From Escherichia coli O157:H7 (lineage in GTDB: Bacteria; Pseudomonadota; Gammaproteobacteria; Enterobacterales; Enterobacteriaceae): a stretch of 64,000 nucleotides of DNA. The stretch is taken from NCBI RefSeq assembly GCF_013167455.1, contig NZ_CP038328.1; one strand, 5' to 3'. Made by a program: the position numbers and the translations under genes. Numbering within the stretch: position 1 is the stretch's first letter; every line of letters starts with the position of its first letter. The notes beneath the pieces are model-generated. The model was not told where the DNA came from, ran no database searches, and worked only from the letters and a program-made list of their open reading frames with translations. Below are positions 4,177-63,682 of this stretch, in pieces.

Positions 4177-5615
4177 TTATTTCAGCCCCAGAGCGGCTTT
4201 CATGGTGTAGAAGAGATCGGTCTGGTCGGTCAGTCCAACGACATTGGCGGCATGCGGGCCATACGCCGCAATACGCAACTGACTGCCGGTATGTTCTTGT
4301 GAATCCTCTTCGGAGTTCCCGTAACTCATCACCATCACTGCGCCATCTTTGGTATTTAGCGCCTGAGTGAGGCCCGGAGCTTTGGTATCCGGCGCAACAA
4401 TCTGGCTGGCGTGGGCGTGATCAGCGGTGACTATGACCAGCGTGTTACCATCCTTTTTGGCGAATTCCAGCGCCCGTTGTACGGCTTCATCGAGATCGAC
4501 CGTCTCGCCAATTTGCCCACAAGGATTCGCAGCATGATCCTGTTTATCGATTGACGCACCTTCAACTTGCAGGAAAAAGCCTTTCTCATTTTTACTCAAC
4601 AATTCAATGGCTTTGTCGGTCATCTGTGCCAGGGTCGGTACACTGTCATTACGTTGCGGATTAGGCGTACAGGTGACTGCGGGCTTATCGATATTACCGT
4701 GGTACGTTGCTTTCGGTCCTAGCCAGCGCACTGGCATATTGCCGTCAGCAAACAGGCCAAGCAGGGGTTTTTGCTGATTCGCTTCCGTCACCGAATTCAG
4801 TGAGGCAGCATCGCTCACCAACTGATAACCACGCGCCTGTGCCTGTTCACGCAGCGTTTTTCCCTGCCATTCACCAGCGGTTGCCGTTTCAGCAAAGGTT
4901 TTTGCGCCGCCGCCAAGCGTAACGTCGGCACGAGCGTTAAGCAGCTGTTCGGTAATCGATCCTTTTCCGCCTTTTTCCAGAGCGTTACCCGGACATTTTT
5001 CACTGGTCGCGCTCGGACCGTAGCATTTGCGCGAGGTCACATGCGCCACCAGCGCGGCGGGCGTGGCATCCTGCAACTCTGCGGTAGAAACGTTACCGGT
5101 CGCCAGACCTGCGGCTTTTGCCATTTCCAGAATCGTTGGGTGATCTTTTTCGTGAATATCGACGCCCAGCGCGCCGTTATAGGTTTTGACACCGGTTGAC
5201 CAGGCGGTTGCTGATGCAGCCGAGTCGGTGACGTAGTCCGGTTTTCCGGTTTTTTTATTCAGCGCATAGTGAGTGTATTGCCCGGTAAGCGGTAAGGCAT
5301 CGATACCTTTAAAAAAGCCGCCCGCACCTTCGGCATAATTACGTGCGGCAGTAATTTCCGAATCCCCCATCCCATCGCCAATCAGCAAAATAATATTTTT
5401 TGCAGGTTTATCGCTAAGAGAATCACGCAGAGCGGCGGTCTGATCAGCCGTTAAGCGGCGGTCTGATCAGCCGTTAAGCGGCGAGCACCGCCGGGTGCAG
5501 TAATATCGCCCTGAGCAGCCCGGTTTTCCAGAACAGGCATTTCTGGTGTCCGGGCTTTTGTCACAGGGGTAAACAGTAACGGTAAGAGTGCCAGTGCAAT
5601 AGTGCTTTGTTTCAC
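4177..5615 (-). pseudogene. phoA: Alkaline phosphatase phoA, reading frame broken by a 23-bp direct tandem duplication in the region encoding the first residues of the mature protein
   Basis: N-terminal fragment (ORF 5451..5684: ...[54 protein letters not shown]) and C-terminal fragment (4177..5388) lie in different frames. The span from the GTG start to the stop is 1439 nt, which is 1416 + 23. Confidence 0.85.
5432..5477. repeat. Perfect direct tandem duplication of a 23-bp unit (plus strand GCGGCGGTCTGATCAGCCGTTAA x2) inside phoA
   Basis: Both copies read directly and adjacent; the second copy brings a TAA in frame. Confidence 0.9.
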
Positions 5616-8337: not shown

Positions 8338-8395
8338 GATTTACGTTGCCAGATACGGCCTAAAACGCCTTATCTGGCATGACATTCCTGTTTGT

Positions 8396-29441: not shown

Positions 29442-30581
<1,140 letters not shown>

Positions 30582-30673: not shown

Positions 30674-31507
30674 ATGGAACTCATTGAAAAACATGCCAGC
30701 TTTGGCGGCTGGCAAAATGTGTATCGGCATTATTCCGCATCACTGAAATGTGAAATGAATGTCGGCGTCTATCTCCCACCAAAAGCTGCAGGTGAAAAAT
30801 TACCGGTGCTGTACTGGCTTTCGGGCCTGACCTGCAATGAGCAGAATTTCATTACTAAATCGGGGGTGCAGCGTTACGCGGCTGAGCACAACATTATTGT
30901 TGTTGCGCCGGACACCAGTCCGCGAGGCAGTCATGTCGCAGATGCCGACCGTTACGATCTCGGGCAAGGTGCCGGGTTTTACCTGAACGCGACGCAAGCG
31001 CCGTGGAATGAACATTACAAAATGTATGACTATATCCGCAACGAGCTGCCGGATTTAGTGATGAATCATTTTCCGGCAACGGCCAAAAAGTCTATCTCTG
31101 GTCATTCTATGGGCGGACTGGGCGCGCTGGTGCTGGCGTTACGTAACCCAGATGAATATGTCAGCGTCTCGGCGTTTTCGCCCATTGTCTCCCCATCGCA
31201 AGTACCGTGGGGACAGCAAGCCTTTGCCGCATATCTTGGTGAAAATAAAGAGGCCTGGTTGGATTACCATCCGGTGAGTCTTATTTCACAAGGTCAACGC
31301 GTTGCGGAAATCATGGTTGATCAGGGGTTGAGTGATGATTTTTACGCGGAACAGCTGCGGACTCAAAATCTTGAAAAGATCTGCCAGGAGATGAATATCA
31401 AAACGTTAATCCGTTATCACGAGGGTTACGACCACAGCTATTATTTTGTCTCCAGTTTTATTGGCGAGCATATTGCCTACCACGCCAATAAACTGAATAT
31501 GCGTTGA
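30674..31507 (+). CDS. frmB: S-formylglutathione hydrolase (esterase D family)
   Basis: 277 aa with GHSMGG nucleophile elbow. Confidence 0.9.
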   Translation: MELIEKHASFGGWQNVYRHYSASLKCEMNVGVYLPPKAAGEKLPVLYWLSGLTCNEQNFITKSGVQRYAAEHNIIVVAPDTSPRGSHVADADRYDLGQGAGFYLNATQAPWNEHYKMYDYIRNELPDLVMNHFPATAKKSISGHSMGGLGALVLALRNPDEYVSVSAFSPIVSPSQVPWGQQAFAAYLGENKEAWLDYHPVSLISQGQRVAEIMVDQGLSDDFYAEQLRTQNLEKICQEMNIKTLIRYHEGYDHSYYFVSSFIGEHIAYHANKLNMR

Positions 31508-31516
31508 TAATAGTGC

Positions 31517-31620
31517 ACGACTGCCGGATGCGGCGTGAACGCCTTATCCGCCTACATTTCGCCCGCAGGCCGTAGGCATGATAAGACGCGCATAGCGTCG
31601 CATCAGGCATCTGCGCACGA
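31517..31620. repeat. REP-type palindromic elements downstream of frmB
   Basis: GCCGGATGCGGCGTGAACGCCTTATCCG and GGCATGATAAGACGCG...GCATCAGGC motifs read directly. Confidence 0.75.
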
Positions 31621-31631
31621 CTTATCTATGT

Positions 31632-32171
31632 TTACCACATCAAATCATCAGGCACTTTGAAGTCGGCATACGGGTCGTCTTCATCCTGCTCTTCGGCACT
31701 GAGCGCGCTGTGCAACACAATACTGCTGGCATCACGCTGAGCAATTTTATCGGCAACGCTGGCGGGAATAATGGCGTATTCACCTTCGCTATTGTTATCG
31801 ACCAACAAGCGGGCAATCGCCAGACGACCATTAATCAACTGCGCCTGTGTGAGCTTATCGACAAAAATCTTCTTAATCAGATTGCCATCAGTGAAGTTAA
31901 AACCAATATCGCCATTGGCAATGGTGATCCGGTTCATTTCAATAAGCTGCTTCACCTGAGCTTTATATTCTTTCGCCAACGCCGCTTGTTTTTGCTGTTC
32001 GCTAAGCTGTTTATCACGCTCAAGCTGTGCCTTTTTATTTTCTTCTACCGCCGCCCGAGCTTCACGCGCCTGAACGCGCGATTTTTTCGCCGTTCTCTCG
32101 ACCTTCGCCGCTTTTTTGCTGGTGACTAATCCTGCTTTGAGCAACTGCTCTTGTAAGGTAAGTTTTGCCAT
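31632..32171 (-). CDS. yaiL: YaiL (DUF2058-like basic, K/A/E-rich protein), 179 aa; start at MAKLTLQEQ preferred
   Basis: Translation matches remembered YaiL; listed ORF has a 39-codon upstream extension. Confidence 0.75.
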   Translation of the reverse strand: MAKLTLQEQLLKAGLVTSKKAAKVERTAKKSRVQAREARAAVEENKKAQLERDKQLSEQQKQAALAKEYKAQVKQLIEMNRITIANGDIGFNFTDGNLIKKIFVDKLTQAQLINGRLAIARLLVDNNSEGEYAIIPASVADKIAQRDASSIVLHSALSAEEQDEDDPYADFKVPDDLMW

Positions 32172-32272
32172 CTTTGTTTCCAAACCCGCTGAATAATTTT
32201 TAGCGAGTATACCTGTAAACGCCGTGGGTGTATTGGGGGCAAGTCCCTTTCGCCCCTGCTTAATAAGGCGCG

Positions 32273-33484
32273 TCAGGCATCGGCACACGGCTGCATTCTT
32301 AATCTCCGACTCATCAAAATAAACACCGCCAACCCAGCAACAAGAATACCCGGTGCAGAAGCGGCCATTACGCCGACCGTGCCAGTGCCTAATGCCAGCA
32401 TTTTCCCGGCCAGTAACGGACCGCTCATAGCCCCCAGACGCCCTACCGCCACGGCTGTTCCCACACCTGTTGCGCGGATCTGCGAACTGTAAAACAACGG
32501 TGCCAGGGCATACAAAACGCTTTGCCCACCTGTCGCAAACAACCCCGCGACAAATCCCGCCAGCAACATACCGTTAAATGACGACACCGTTCCAAGCGCC
32601 AGCAGCGAAGCTAACATGCCGCTATAAATCAGTAGCGACATGGTTACTGGACGCAGCTTATCCATCAATGCGCCCAACATTAACGTCCCGCTCGCCGCAC
32701 CCATTTGCAGTGCAAACATCACCCCTGCCGCCTGCGATGGCTGGAATCCTTGCTCCACCAAAAGCAGCGGTAGCCAGTTGATCAACATGTAAACCACCAG
32801 CAGAGTGAAGAAATAACACAGCCACAGCAGCAGCGTCGCGGTTGCCGTTTCTGGCGCAAATAACGCACGCAGTGGTGGCGCAGCCTGTTTTTCGCCAGCG
32901 AAAACCGCCGACTCCGGCAGCCAGCGCATTAATAGCGGCACCAGAATCAACGGCACCACACCACCTACCCAAAACACCGTTTGCCATGCTAAGTTTGCCC
33001 CCGCGAAACCCAGTGTCGCCGCCAGCGCCGCGCCAATGGGAACACCGCAATACATCAGGCTCACTGCCGTCCCACGAAAACGTGGACCCGCGGCTTCAGA
33101 CGTCAGGGCGATAAGATTCGGCAACGCCGCCCCCAGCCCGACACCGGTCATCAGCCGCGCAAAGACCAGTGAGGGGAAATCCCAGGCAATCGCCGTTGCC
33201 AGCGAGAACAAACCAAACAGCGCAACTGAGCCAATCAAAATGCGCTTGCGACCATAACGGTCCGCCAGCATTCCGCCAACCAACGCGCCGGGTAGTAAAC
33301 CGAGTATTCCGGCGCTGAATATCCAGCCCATTTGCATTTTATCGAGTGCGAAAGCCTGGGCGATGCCACCCGCCGCAATGCCAGCCGCCTGAAGATCCAG
33401 CCCTTCCATCAGAGCGACCAAAAAACAAAGCCCGATGGTCAGCATCAGGCGGGATGAAGATGATGAAGGGGTACGAGTCGACAT
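32273..33484 (-). CDS. mhpT: 3-(3-hydroxyphenyl)propionate MFS transporter (403 aa; start at MSTRTPSSSS)
   Basis: 12-TM MFS protein at the end of the mhp cluster. Confidence 0.85.
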   Translation of the reverse strand: MSTRTPSSSSSRLMLTIGLCFLVALMEGLDLQAAGIAAGGIAQAFALDKMQMGWIFSAGILGLLPGALVGGMLADRYGRKRILIGSVALFGLFSLATAIAWDFPSLVFARLMTGVGLGAALPNLIALTSEAAGPRFRGTAVSLMYCGVPIGAALAATLGFAGANLAWQTVFWVGGVVPLILVPLLMRWLPESAVFAGEKQAAPPLRALFAPETATATLLLWLCYFFTLLVVYMLINWLPLLLVEQGFQPSQAAGVMFALQMGAASGTLMLGALMDKLRPVTMSLLIYSGMLASLLALGTVSSFNGMLLAGFVAGLFATGGQSVLYALAPLFYSSQIRATGVGTAVAVGRLGAMSGPLLAGKMLALGTGTVGVMAASAPGILVAGLAVFILMSRRLRMQPCADA

Positions 33485-33555
33485 AAGATGAACCTCATTG
33501 CGTGTGCAGGTGAATCGCGACTGATACATTGCCAGCCGCGTAATCAGAACTATTT

Positions 33556-33625
33556 AATGACTGCCTACGGGCGAAATGTAGACCGGATAAGGCGTTCACG
33601 CCGCATCCGGCAGTCGTGCTGGGAT
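33556..33625. repeat. REP-type element between mhpE and mhpT; reverse complement of the element at about 31517-31565
   Basis: CGGGCGAAATGTAGACCGGATAAGGCGTTCACGCCGCATCCGGCAGTC read directly. Confidence 0.75.
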
Positions 33626-33659
33626 GGGCATACAAAATGCACGTTCTCGGCAGTCAATA

Positions 33660-34669
33660 TTATTTGTTGTTGCGCAGATCCAGCGCCACGTCGACGATCA
33701 TATCCTCCTGGCCGCCAACCATCCGGCGTTTGCCCAGCTCAACGAGAATATCCACCGCGCTTAAGCCATAACGCGCCGCCGCCGTTTCACAGTGACGCAG
33801 GAAGCTGGAGTAAACACCAGCGTATCCCAGCGCCAGCGTTTCGCGATCGACTCGTACCGGTCGATCCTGCAACGGACGCACCAGGTCGTCAGCAGCATCC
33901 ATTAACGCATAGAGATCGGCCCCATGCTGCCAACCCAGTTTATCCACGGCGGCAATAAATACTTCCAGCGGCGCGTTACCTGCGCCCGCTCCCATTCCCG
34001 CGAGGCTGGCGTCGATTCGGTCGCAGCCCTCTTCCACCGCCGCGATAGAGTTCGCCACGCCAAGACTCAGGTTATGGTGAGCGTGCATGCCGGTTTGCGT
34101 TTCTGGTTTCAGCACTGCTTTCAGGGCGCGGAAACGGTCACGGATATCGCTCATGTTCATCGCACCGCCAGAATCCACCACATAAATACAGGTCGCACCG
34201 TAGCCTTCCATCAGCTTTGCCTGCTTTGCGAGATTCTCCGGCGTGGTCATATGGCTCATCATCAGAAAACCAACGGTGTCCATTCCGAGCTCGCGGGCAT
34301 ACTGAATATGCTGGGCGGAAACATCAGCTTCGGTACAGTGCGTAGCCACACGAACCACCCGCGCGCCAGCCTGCCAGGCATTTTTCAGATCGTGAATAGT
34401 GCCGATTCCTGGCAGCAACAACGTCGCGATTTTGGCGTGCTTCACCACATCCGCCGCTGCTTCAATCCATTCAAGGTCGCTATGTGCGCCGAAACCATAG
34501 TTAAAGCTGGACCCCTGCAAACCGTCGCCGTGGGCCACTTCAATCGAATCCACGCGGGCATCGTCCAGTGCTTTGGCAATCTGGCGAACGTTTTCCAGCG
34601 AATACTGATGACGAATGGCGTGCATACCGTCACGCAACGTGACGTCCGAGATATAAAGTTTTTTACCGT

Positions 34670-34673
<4 letters not shown>
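33660..34673 (-). CDS. mhpE: 4-hydroxy-2-oxovalerate aldolase
   Basis: 337 aa, recognised MhpE sequence. Confidence 0.95.
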
Positions 34674-48439: not shown

Positions 48440-48448
48440 GCAATCAAT

Positions 48449-48478
48449 GTCGGATGCGGCGCGAGCGCCTTATCCGAC
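48449..48478. repeat. REP element between lacY and lacA
   Basis: GTCGGATGCGGCGCGAGCGCCTTATCCGAC read directly. Confidence 0.8.
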
Positions 48479-48504
48479 CAACATATCATAACGGAATGAT
48501 CGCA

Positions 48505-49126: not shown

Positions 49127-49200
49127 TTGCCTGATACGCTTCGCTTATCAGGCCTACAAATTCAGTGATCTATGTAGGCCGCATCCGGCGTGAACAAAGC
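49127..49200. repeat. Pair of REP elements between convergent lacA and cynX
   Basis: GCCTGATACGCTTCGCTTATCAGGCCTAC and GTAGGCCGCATCCGGCG read directly. Confidence 0.8.
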
Positions 49201-52588: not shown

Positions 52589-52670
52589 TGCCTGATGCGT
52601 TACGCTTATCAGGCCTACGAGTTCAGTGCTCTACGTAGGCCTGATAAGGCGTTCAAGCCGCATCCGGCAT
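52589..52670. repeat. REP elements between convergent cynR and codA
   Basis: GCCTGATGCGTTACGCTTATCAGGCCTAC and GTAGGCCTGATAAGGCGTTCAAGCCGCATCCGGC read directly. Confidence 0.8.
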
Positions 52671-55384: not shown

Positions 55385-56128
55385 AACAGTGGGTAGGCAT
55401 GATAAGACGCGTCAGCGTCGCATCAGGCAACTACGCACGGTGTCGGATGCGGCGCGAGCGCCTTATCCGACCTACGGTTCAGGCCTGTAGGCATGATAAG
55501 ACGCGCCTGCGTCGTATCAGGCATCTGCGCACGGTGTCGGATGCGGCGCGAGCGCCTTATCCGACCTACGGTTCAGGCCTGTAGGCATGATAAGACGCAT
55601 CAGCGTCGCATCAGGCACTGAGCACGGTGTCGGATGCGGTGCGAGCGCCTTATCCGACCTACGGTTCAGGCCTGTAGGCATGATAAGACGCATCAGCGTC
55701 GCATCAGGCATCTGCGCATGGTGTCGGATGCGGCGCGAGCGCCTTATCCGACCTACGGTTCAGGCCTGTAGGCATGATAAGACGCGCCTGCGTCGCATCA
55801 GGCATCGGCGCATGGTGTCGAATGCGGCGCGAGCGCCTTATCCGACCTACGGTTCAGGCCTGTAGGCATGATAAGACGCATCAGCGTCGCATCAGGCATC
55901 GGCGCATGGTGTCGAATGCGGTGCGAGCGCCTTATCCGACCTACGGTTCAGGCCTGTAGGCATGATAAGACGCATCAGCGTCGCATCAGGCATCTGCGCA
56001 TGGTGTCGGATGCGGCGCGAGCGCCTTATCCGACCTACGGTTCAGGCCTGTAGGCATGATAAGACGCGCCAGCGTCGCATCAGGCATCTGCGCACAACTG
56101 TCGGATGCGCCACGCGACGCATCCGACA
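55385..56128. repeat. Tandem array (about 8 copies) of a roughly 94-bp composite REP/BIME-type unit between the codB promoter and the prpE 3' end
   Basis: The motif TAGGCATGATAAGACGC recurs at about 55394, 55488, 55582, 55675, 55769, 55863, 55957 and 56051, each followed by GTCGGATGCGGCGCGAGCGCCTTATCCGACCTACGGTTCAGGCCTG. Confidence 0.9.
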
Positions 56129-60755: not shown

Positions 60756-60850
60756 TGTCGGATGCGACGCCATGCGTCTTATCCGACCTACAGTTCACCC
60801 CGTAGGCCTGATAAGTCGCGTCAGCGGCGCATCAGGCATCGGTTGTCGAA
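60756..60850. repeat. REP elements in the prpB-prpC intergenic region
   Basis: GTCGGATGCGACGCCATGCGTCTTATCCGACCTAC and GTAGGCCTGATAAGTCGCGTCAGCGGCGCATCAGGC read directly. Confidence 0.8.
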
Positions 60851-63585: not shown

Positions 63586-63588
63586 ACT

Positions 63589-63618
63589 GCCGAATGCAGC
63601 GCGAACGCTTTATCCGGC
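63589..63618. repeat. REP element between convergent prpR and yahO
   Basis: GCCGAATGCAGCGCGAACGCTTTATCCGGC read directly. Confidence 0.7.
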
Positions 63619-63682
63619 ATAAATTTCAATAGATGATCACCGATAAACTTACGCATCGGGGATGTTTACATAGGATTCAGAA

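Follow-up and report, generated by a model that had tools for sequence, protein, structure and literature searches.

How should two nearly identical sequences be understood when they face each other, in inverted orientation, across two genes of a bacterial chromosome? We consider this question for Escherichia coli O157:H7, in a 64,000-nt stretch of contig NZ_CP038328.1 (the window, numbered from its first letter), where such a pair of arms lies on either side of a 2-kb block that holds yaiL and mhpT. A sequence-only reading had pointed to the pair as a potential substrate for inversion or for RNA duplex formation. Judged by their sequence, both arms are ordinary members of the repetitive extragenic palindrome (REP) and bacterial interspersed mosaic element (BIME) family, of the BIME-2 kind, standing at the ends of neighbouring operons. 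Their kind is already known, REP/BIME elements having been described since the 1980s. It is very probable that the two are independent, old and orthologously conserved copies, which would form local hairpins in the 3' untranslated regions (UTRs) of RNA and be prone to rearrangement in DNA, and whose inverted arrangement is accidental.

Two REPs at the ends of neighbouring operons

The left arm (31515-31573, + strand) and the right arm (33560-33619, - strand), once the latter is reverse-complemented, agree at 56 of 60 aligned positions (93%) when 59 nt are aligned with 60 nt by MAFFT; three substitutions and one 1-nt indel account for the differences. A repeat search of the window resolves the pair into perfect arms of 36 nt (31515-31550 and 33584-33619, 100% complementary) and an adjoining inverted segment of 22 nt (31552-31573 and 33560-33581) that is 91% complementary. 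The inverted, near-identical pair of the sequence-only reading is thus real, and its identity is well over the 85% below which that reading would have given the pair up. The count of a single mismatch was nearly right, as the 47 nt on which it was based (31519-31565) show one substitution and, in addition, a 1-nt indel. The right segment had been placed a few bases off, at 33556-33612, whereas the stretch quoted matches about 33568-33615.

That the segments contain REPs also stands. A REP is an imperfect palindrome with a GTAG/CTAC foot (PMC3333891), and the window was compared with the three E. coli REP consensus sequences (y, z1 and z2) listed in PMC11208160, using TGCCGGATGCGGCGTAAACGCCTTATCCGGCCTAC as the y consensus and the nomenclature of PMC3333891. 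The y REP of the left arm (31522-31555, + strand) agrees with the consensus at 33 of 35 positions, has one 1-nt deletion and ends in CCTAC; that of the right arm (33578-33612, - strand) likewise agrees at 33 of 35. Read on the + strand, the foot of the palindrome is CTAC at 31552-31555 and GTAG at 33578-33581. Scores of both copies against the z1 and z2 consensus sequences fall far below the y score. Chance similarity was considered and rejected, since shuffles of the window give an expectation of 0.00 for a 34-nt y-REP consensus with as many as 3 mismatches. Predicted folds give each y REP a hairpin with one internal mismatch, ((((((.((((....)))).)))))) at -15.4 kcal/mol on the left and ((((((((.((((....)))).)))))))) at -19.6 kcal/mol on the right. 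Both copies therefore have the features of E. coli REP type y, namely a 35-nt imperfect palindrome, a GTAG/CTAC foot, an extragenic position and a high copy number. The loss of one stem-base G from the left copy (CCG-CCTAC) and the change of GGCCTAC to GGTCTAC in the right copy are no differences of substance.

The two sites differ in what accompanies the y REP. At the left site, the tail flank GCACGACT is followed by the y REP, by a short head-to-head (S-type) linker at 31556-31570 and by a z2 REP at 31571-31608 (- strand), which matches its consensus at 35 of 37 positions with one 1-nt insertion and scores 59 as z2 versus 30 as z1. The linker, 15-16 nt long, consists of ATTTCGCCC plus GCAGGC(C), and the latter part looks like a degenerate duplicate of the z2 head. 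The left site is thus one complete y-linker-z2 BIME-2 unit, and as a whole it is predicted to fold into a long y:z2 hairpin of -56 kcal/mol on the + strand (z = -4.5) and -63.6 kcal/mol on the - strand (z = -5.6). The right arm lies 76-135 nt upstream of the mhpT ATG, and its y REP stands alone. Beside it, at 33560-33577, are ACTGCCTAC, which is the stub of a lost z2 head, and then, on the + strand, the linker GGGCGAAAT, the same linker as at the left site. In the window the right site is therefore a single y REP with linker and z2 stub, without a full BIME-2; a longer z2 stub, gatacaggcctac, occupies this site in a divergent E. coli (L009).

Cuts at two published iREP sites (PMC3333891) would be expected to yield the stub TGCC|TAC that is found beside mhpT, and it was considered as a footprint of precise excision by TnpA_REP. 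This idea was dropped because slippage between GCCT direct repeats at the stem base gives the same product, and because the stub in L009 is different and longer. The TnpA_REP of E. coli binds and cuts REP-pair sequences in vitro, and a REPtron has been shown for an O157:H7 strain (PMC3333891). No cognate tnpA_REP gene was found in the region examined, including the yaiL-mhpT block.

Among known systems, BIME-2 (y plus z2, a short S linker, tandemly amplifiable; Bachellier/Gilson nomenclature, PMC3333891) describes the left site, while the right site is better called a solitary REP or partial BIME. BIME-1 combines z1 and y across a long L linker with an IHF site, whereas the partner here is z2 and the linker only 15-16 nt. 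REP325, from which naRNA4 (Rfam RF02564) is derived, likewise places y and z2 hairpins in a 3' UTR. The naRNA4 model matches the two arms weakly, at 35.6 and 31.8 bits where the gathering score is 59.5; a naRNA unit has two hairpins, each arm one. Inverted REP pairs are also shared with REPIN/RAYT systems, in which a REP-associated tyrosine transposase mobilises REP doublets, but REPIN doublets lie tens of bases apart, as in the left BIME itself, and the arms here are 2 kb apart.

Such elements are abundant in this chromosome. The window holds 24 REPs at 9 loci, and as only two of these lie in the arms, the pair as a pair is not special. The 59-nt arm matches each genome at a median of at least 39 places, and at 40 or more in 2,453 records; K-12 has 584 REPs (PMC3333891). 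On these counts and matches, the similarity of the arms reflects membership of a repeat family. Elsewhere in the window, a large BIME-2 array at 55393-56109 comprises 7.6 tandem 94-nt units (94% match) of alternating z2 and y with the linker GGTTCAGGCCT, unlike that of the frmB site. A z1/y pair lies at 52590-52669, single z1, y and z2 copies are found among 49129-49157, 48448-48482, 60801-60837 and 63588-63621, and there is a weak y-like match at 8347-8378. A perfect 23-nt tandem repeat of another sequence, 2.3 copies of AGCGGCGGTCTGATCAGCCGTTA, occupies 5431-5483.

The inverted orientation follows from the layout of the genes. The window matches E. coli O157:H7-type chromosomes at 100% identity, and its genes here run frmB> <yaiL <mhpT <mhpE. 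On the + strand lie frmA (29472-30581) and frmB, also called fghA (30674-31507), which encodes S-formylglutathione hydrolase, is the last gene of frmRAB and converges on yaiL. On the - strand lie yaiL (31632-32171, a DUF2058 protein), mhpT (32273-33484, the 3-hydroxyphenylpropionate transporter) and mhpE (33660-34673, 4-hydroxy-2-oxovalerate aldolase), with which the enzyme genes of the mhp operon end. The arms do bracket yaiL and mhpT, as had been read from the sequence, and the gene names agree with the RefSeq annotation of identical or colinear genomes (fghA/frmB, yaiL, mhpT, mhpE). Both y REPs are extragenic, 3' of frmB/yaiL and of mhpE. The 124-nt convergent gap between frmB and yaiL carries the left BIME, its y REP in the sense of the frmB 3' UTR and its z2 REP in that of the yaiL 3' UTR; the right y REP lies in the mhpE-mhpT gap and reads in the direction of the mhpE-mhpT transcript. 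Each y REP thus has the same sense downstream of its own operon (frmRAB on +, mhpABCDFE on -), and because the operons converge, the arms are mutually inverted. A neighbouring REP pair is inverted half the time by chance.

A further stretch in the gap between yaiL and mhpT, 32240-32295, agrees at 20 of 24 nt (32269-32292) with the left BIME's z2 tail and flank (31599-31622). It was not counted as a REP, as it scores 18 or less against all three consensus sequences and its fold has z = +0.8 against shuffles; by its sequence it may be a decayed REP remnant or a chance match.

Variation of the two sites between strains

Both sites vary in size from strain to strain. A copy-number survey took 59 evenly sampled E. 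coli genomes for each of site A (frmB-yaiL) and site B (mhpT-mhpE). Site A has one BIME in 33 of the 59, two in 23 and three in 1, with a partial match or small deletion in the other 2. Site B has the single y REP of the window in 29 of 59 genomes and is longer by about 100 bp in 5, by about 200 bp in 4 and by about 300 bp in 1; 14 give a partial (57%) match, a pattern also given by K-12 strains, in which site B is a large array, 5 give no match and apparently lack the mhp locus, and 1 is a laboratory deletion strain. REP number therefore varies at both sites in steps of about 100 bp, and at site B ranges from 1 to at least 9. Explicit tandem arrays are seen in L001, L041 and L042, the K-12-like L001 having five y and four z2 REPs at site B. 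The RefSeq record of MG1655 carries no REP or repeat features in its two corresponding intergenic regions (374882-375458 and 377312-377534), despite the 9 and 4 REPs there. In the porcine E. coli UMNK88 (L042 1-806), fghA/frmB is annotated as a frameshifted pseudogene.

The arrays can also receive insertions. In E. coli JSWP021 (L002 4456-5740), IS621, an element of the IS110 family with a bridge-RNA recombinase, has inserted into one z2 REP within the array at site B, in a position orthologous to about 33560-33620 of the window. It sits at its natural target, ATCAGGC|CT|AC (PMC11208160), with the CT core at both junctions.

Beneath this variation the two sites are old and stable in place. Twelve diverse strains, including one cryptic-clade Escherichia, have the same arrangement at both sites, and their y-plus-linker copies cluster by site and not by strain. 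The site B linker is invariant across these strains, and that of site A depends on lineage. Ongoing gene conversion between the arms was rejected because no concerted evolution is seen, copies at A and B being as alike within a strain (identity 0.86) as between strains (0.85), in what is a small and non-independent sample of 12.

In the urinary isolate FDAARGOS_144 (L003 6573-6775) the whole mhpR-mhpABCDFE-mhpT cluster is missing and yaiL is kept; next to it come a pseudogene fragment of the GlxA family and, after that, lacI. Homology with the window stops at about 32236, in the gap separating yaiL from mhpT rather than at the arms, and so yaiL-mhpT is not an evolutionary unit. In the laboratory strains DH10B and DHB4, homology with the window ends at 33541, which is 19 nt short of the right arm, and the sequence there joins a DUF1116 gene. 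This breakpoint, which we presume to be the end-point of a lacX74-type deletion, is beside the REP and not in it.

Inversion, mobility, RNA pairing and descent of the arms

The possibility of inversion was followed up in other genomes with a synthetic inversion junction, composed of the frmB 3' end, the left arm and the reverse complement of the mhpT 5' end, for which at least 80% coverage was required. At this coverage the inverted junction is present in 0 of 5,426 complete E. coli genomes. The native arrangement is found in 3,579 of them, the remainder differing in array length or lacking mhp, and all 12 strains inspected by eye are colinear.

An inversion of this block has nevertheless been recorded. 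Lin et al. (2011) screened 300 Lac-amplified and 240 control isolates of K-12 F'128 and described PJH1479, an inversion of 2.4 kb whose junctions lie in the REPs between mhpE and mhpT and in those on the yaiL side (PMC3161906, Table 1, Fig. 4). Its junction sequences are TAGCGTCGCATCAGGCATCTGCGCACGACT and ATTTGTAGG, and it arose in 1 of 540 starved isolates (PMC3161906). The mhpE-mhpT REP array took part in 20% of the junctions in that study, a rearrangement hot spot, and its authors prefer template switching at hairpins or stalled forks over homologous recombination (PMC3161906). RecA-dependent REP-REP deletions between 35-bp repeats have been described around lacZ after Cas9 cuts (Cui and Bikard 2016, PMC4872102), and F'128 itself is described as formed by REP-REP recombination (Kofoid et al. 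2003, as cited in PMC4872102). The mhpE-mhpT and yaiL-side clusters are thus already documented as rearrangement hot spots near lac, including one inversion of the yaiL-mhpT block. In MG1655, the mhpE-mhpT array contains three forward copies of the 30-nt PJH1479 junction sequence, and the yaiL-frmB BIME, 2.1-2.3 kb away, contains one reversed copy. The intergenic clusters and their inverted geometry around mhpT-yaiL are the same in the window, but the inversion used z2 units, of which the right site of K-12/F'128 has several and that of the window none. For this reason the 30-mer is found in the window at the left site only (31593), and the y-based 36-nt homology alone is available for inversion there.

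Could the pair nonetheless be a working inversion substrate, one that flips yaiL-mhpT by recombination or template switching often enough to matter, whether as a switch resembling phase variation or as a recurrent polymorphism? The 36 bp of perfect inverted identity are about as long as the repeats in RecA-dependent REP-REP exchange (35 bp, PMC4872102), and PJH1479 joins the very same clusters, so that the potential for inversion first proposed is true in principle and published for these two REP clusters. It is rare and unfixed: the natural genomes surveyed contain no inverted junction, and the one published event came from stressed isolates and has non-reciprocal junctions (PMC3161906). An invertible segment of the programmed kind occurs in both orientations next to a recombinase; here no recombinase gene lies in or beside the block, which holds yaiL and mhpT only, and no genome of the 5,426 is inverted. 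Nor would the flip switch a promoter, as the upstream region of each gene lies within the block. We therefore hold a functional or frequent inversion to be extremely unlikely. The same geometry, inverted terminal repeats of about 59 nt around a 2-kb segment, might suggest a mobile unit, such as a composite element bounded by its repeats. No target-site duplication or other direct repeat is seen immediately outside the arms (GATAATAGT versus TGGGATGGG), as would mark a composite transposon or an element resembling a miniature inverted-repeat transposable element, and no transposase lies inside. The natural unit of presence and absence is instead the whole mhp cluster including mhpT, since FDAARGOS_144, without mhpT, keeps yaiL and breaks at about 32236; we give mobility of the block next to no credence. 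Pairing of the arms as RNA, through a long-range duplex within a read-through transcript or between transcripts that would regulate mhpT or yaiL, for example via RNase III, has thermodynamics in its favour. A minus-strand RNA of 2,163 nt, hypothetically extending from the mhpE stop past the frmB-yaiL BIME, has a minimum free energy fold in which 56 of the 60 right-arm bases pair with the left arm, and the isolated duplex reaches -121.8 kcal/mol against -15 to -20 kcal/mol for the local hairpins. The annotated frmB (+) and mhpE (-) mRNAs, however, carry the y REP in the same sense and are there identical, not complementary, which leaves the proposed RNA duplex unsupported. Only the minus-strand read-through RNA would contain both complementary arms, and it must cross the yaiL 3' end and then the entire BIME, an element published as attenuating transcription (bioRxiv 10.64898/2026.03.23.713779). 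The local hairpins would form earlier, during transcription, and the genes are conserved in K-12-like strains despite a very different site B array. A regulatory duplex accordingly seems highly improbable.

A closer relationship between the arms deserves more weight, and it bears on their independence. The arms might be sister copies: intra-fork template switching or TnpA_REP would have placed an inverted copy of one BIME-2 unit 2 kb away, after which the two evolved separately. Their similarity runs past the REP core into the linker ATTTCGCCCG-AGGC, and linkers are reported to be variable between loci and conserved within a locus (Ton-Hoang et al., PMC3333891). The CTAC-ATTTCGCCC variant is absent from the roughly 12 other y REPs of the window, and the other BIME-2 array there uses a linker of its own. 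When 100,044 species-representative genomes were scanned for exact matches to TCCG-N(1-2)-CTACAYTTCGCCCG, the 2 found in Escherichia were both at the mhpT site, and about 30 others fell in unrelated taxa at chance level. A 38-mer spanning the left linker finds a median of one place per genome, but BLAST was too insensitive to find even the right arm in O157 and so the figure shows only that there is no near-identical copy elsewhere. With an exact scan so strict and BLAST so insensitive, diverged copies may exist at other loci; the scan covered species representatives. The linkers of different loci are also visibly versions of one motif, so that the resemblance could be coincidence. We consider descent as sister copies unlikely, though worth keeping in view, and the narrower claim that they stem from a single short-range inverted copying event, by fork template switch or TnpA_REP, would on the sequence evidence be slightly more doubtful. 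If true, the pair would be a preserved natural record of a BIME seeding a neighbouring intergenic region, kept in place since then across E. coli phylogroups and in the one cryptic-clade Escherichia examined. Two points thus count against regarding the arms as independent 3'-UTR elements. The shared linker suggests that they may be more closely related than two random family members, which independence does not explain, and an RNA-level role at both sites is argued purely by analogy. Independent, orthologously conserved REP/BIME-2 copies are still very probably the correct description.

A proposed 3'-end role and what the pair means

What the arms would do as independent REPs can be drawn from published work on other REPs. 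REPs are described as context-dependent 3'-UTR terminators and stabilisers, with about 60% between convergent and about 40% between tandem genes; REP325 is a partly Rho-dependent terminator and a stabiliser of the upstream mRNA, and REPs between convergent genes have been proposed to act bidirectionally (bioRxiv 10.64898/2026.03.23.713779). Neither 31508-31631 nor 33485-33659 contains an intrinsic-terminator-like site, all six matches being inside coding sequence, and the REPs are consequently the sole strong structures in the two gaps. By analogy, we infer that the left BIME is a shared 3'-end element of frmRAB and yaiL, and that the right y REP serves as the end mark of mhpABCDFE, before mhpT. 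In RNA, the hairpins would act locally, blocking 3'-to-5' exonucleases and partly terminating transcription; where frmB and yaiL converge, they would do so in both directions.

The distance of a REP from the stop codon may matter as well. REP-dependent ribosome stalling and translational down-regulation are reported when a REP lies under 16 nt away from the stop codon (Liang et al. 2015, as cited in PMC12306157). From the frmB stop (31505-31507) to the y stem (31523) there are 15 nt, which is within this range, while the 48 nt from the mhpE stop to its stem and the 23 nt from the yaiL stop to z2 are outside it; in the predicted fold of the y:z2 BIME, the outer helix begins within the frmB stop codon. 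As its stem starts 15 nt past the stop, the frmB copy may, by analogy, damp frmB translation.

In DNA, slippage, template switching and recombination would concentrate at these REPs, which are both hairpin-prone and mutually homologous. Inversion of yaiL-mhpT would then be a rare, accidental by-product of REP instability and not a function, and the inverted geometry should not be taken as a switch. The importance of the pair is small beyond bookkeeping. The region is best annotated as REP/BIME-2, and where either gap differs in length by about 100 bp or carries an IS621 insertion, this is expected strain variation in E. coli and should not be read as an assembly error.

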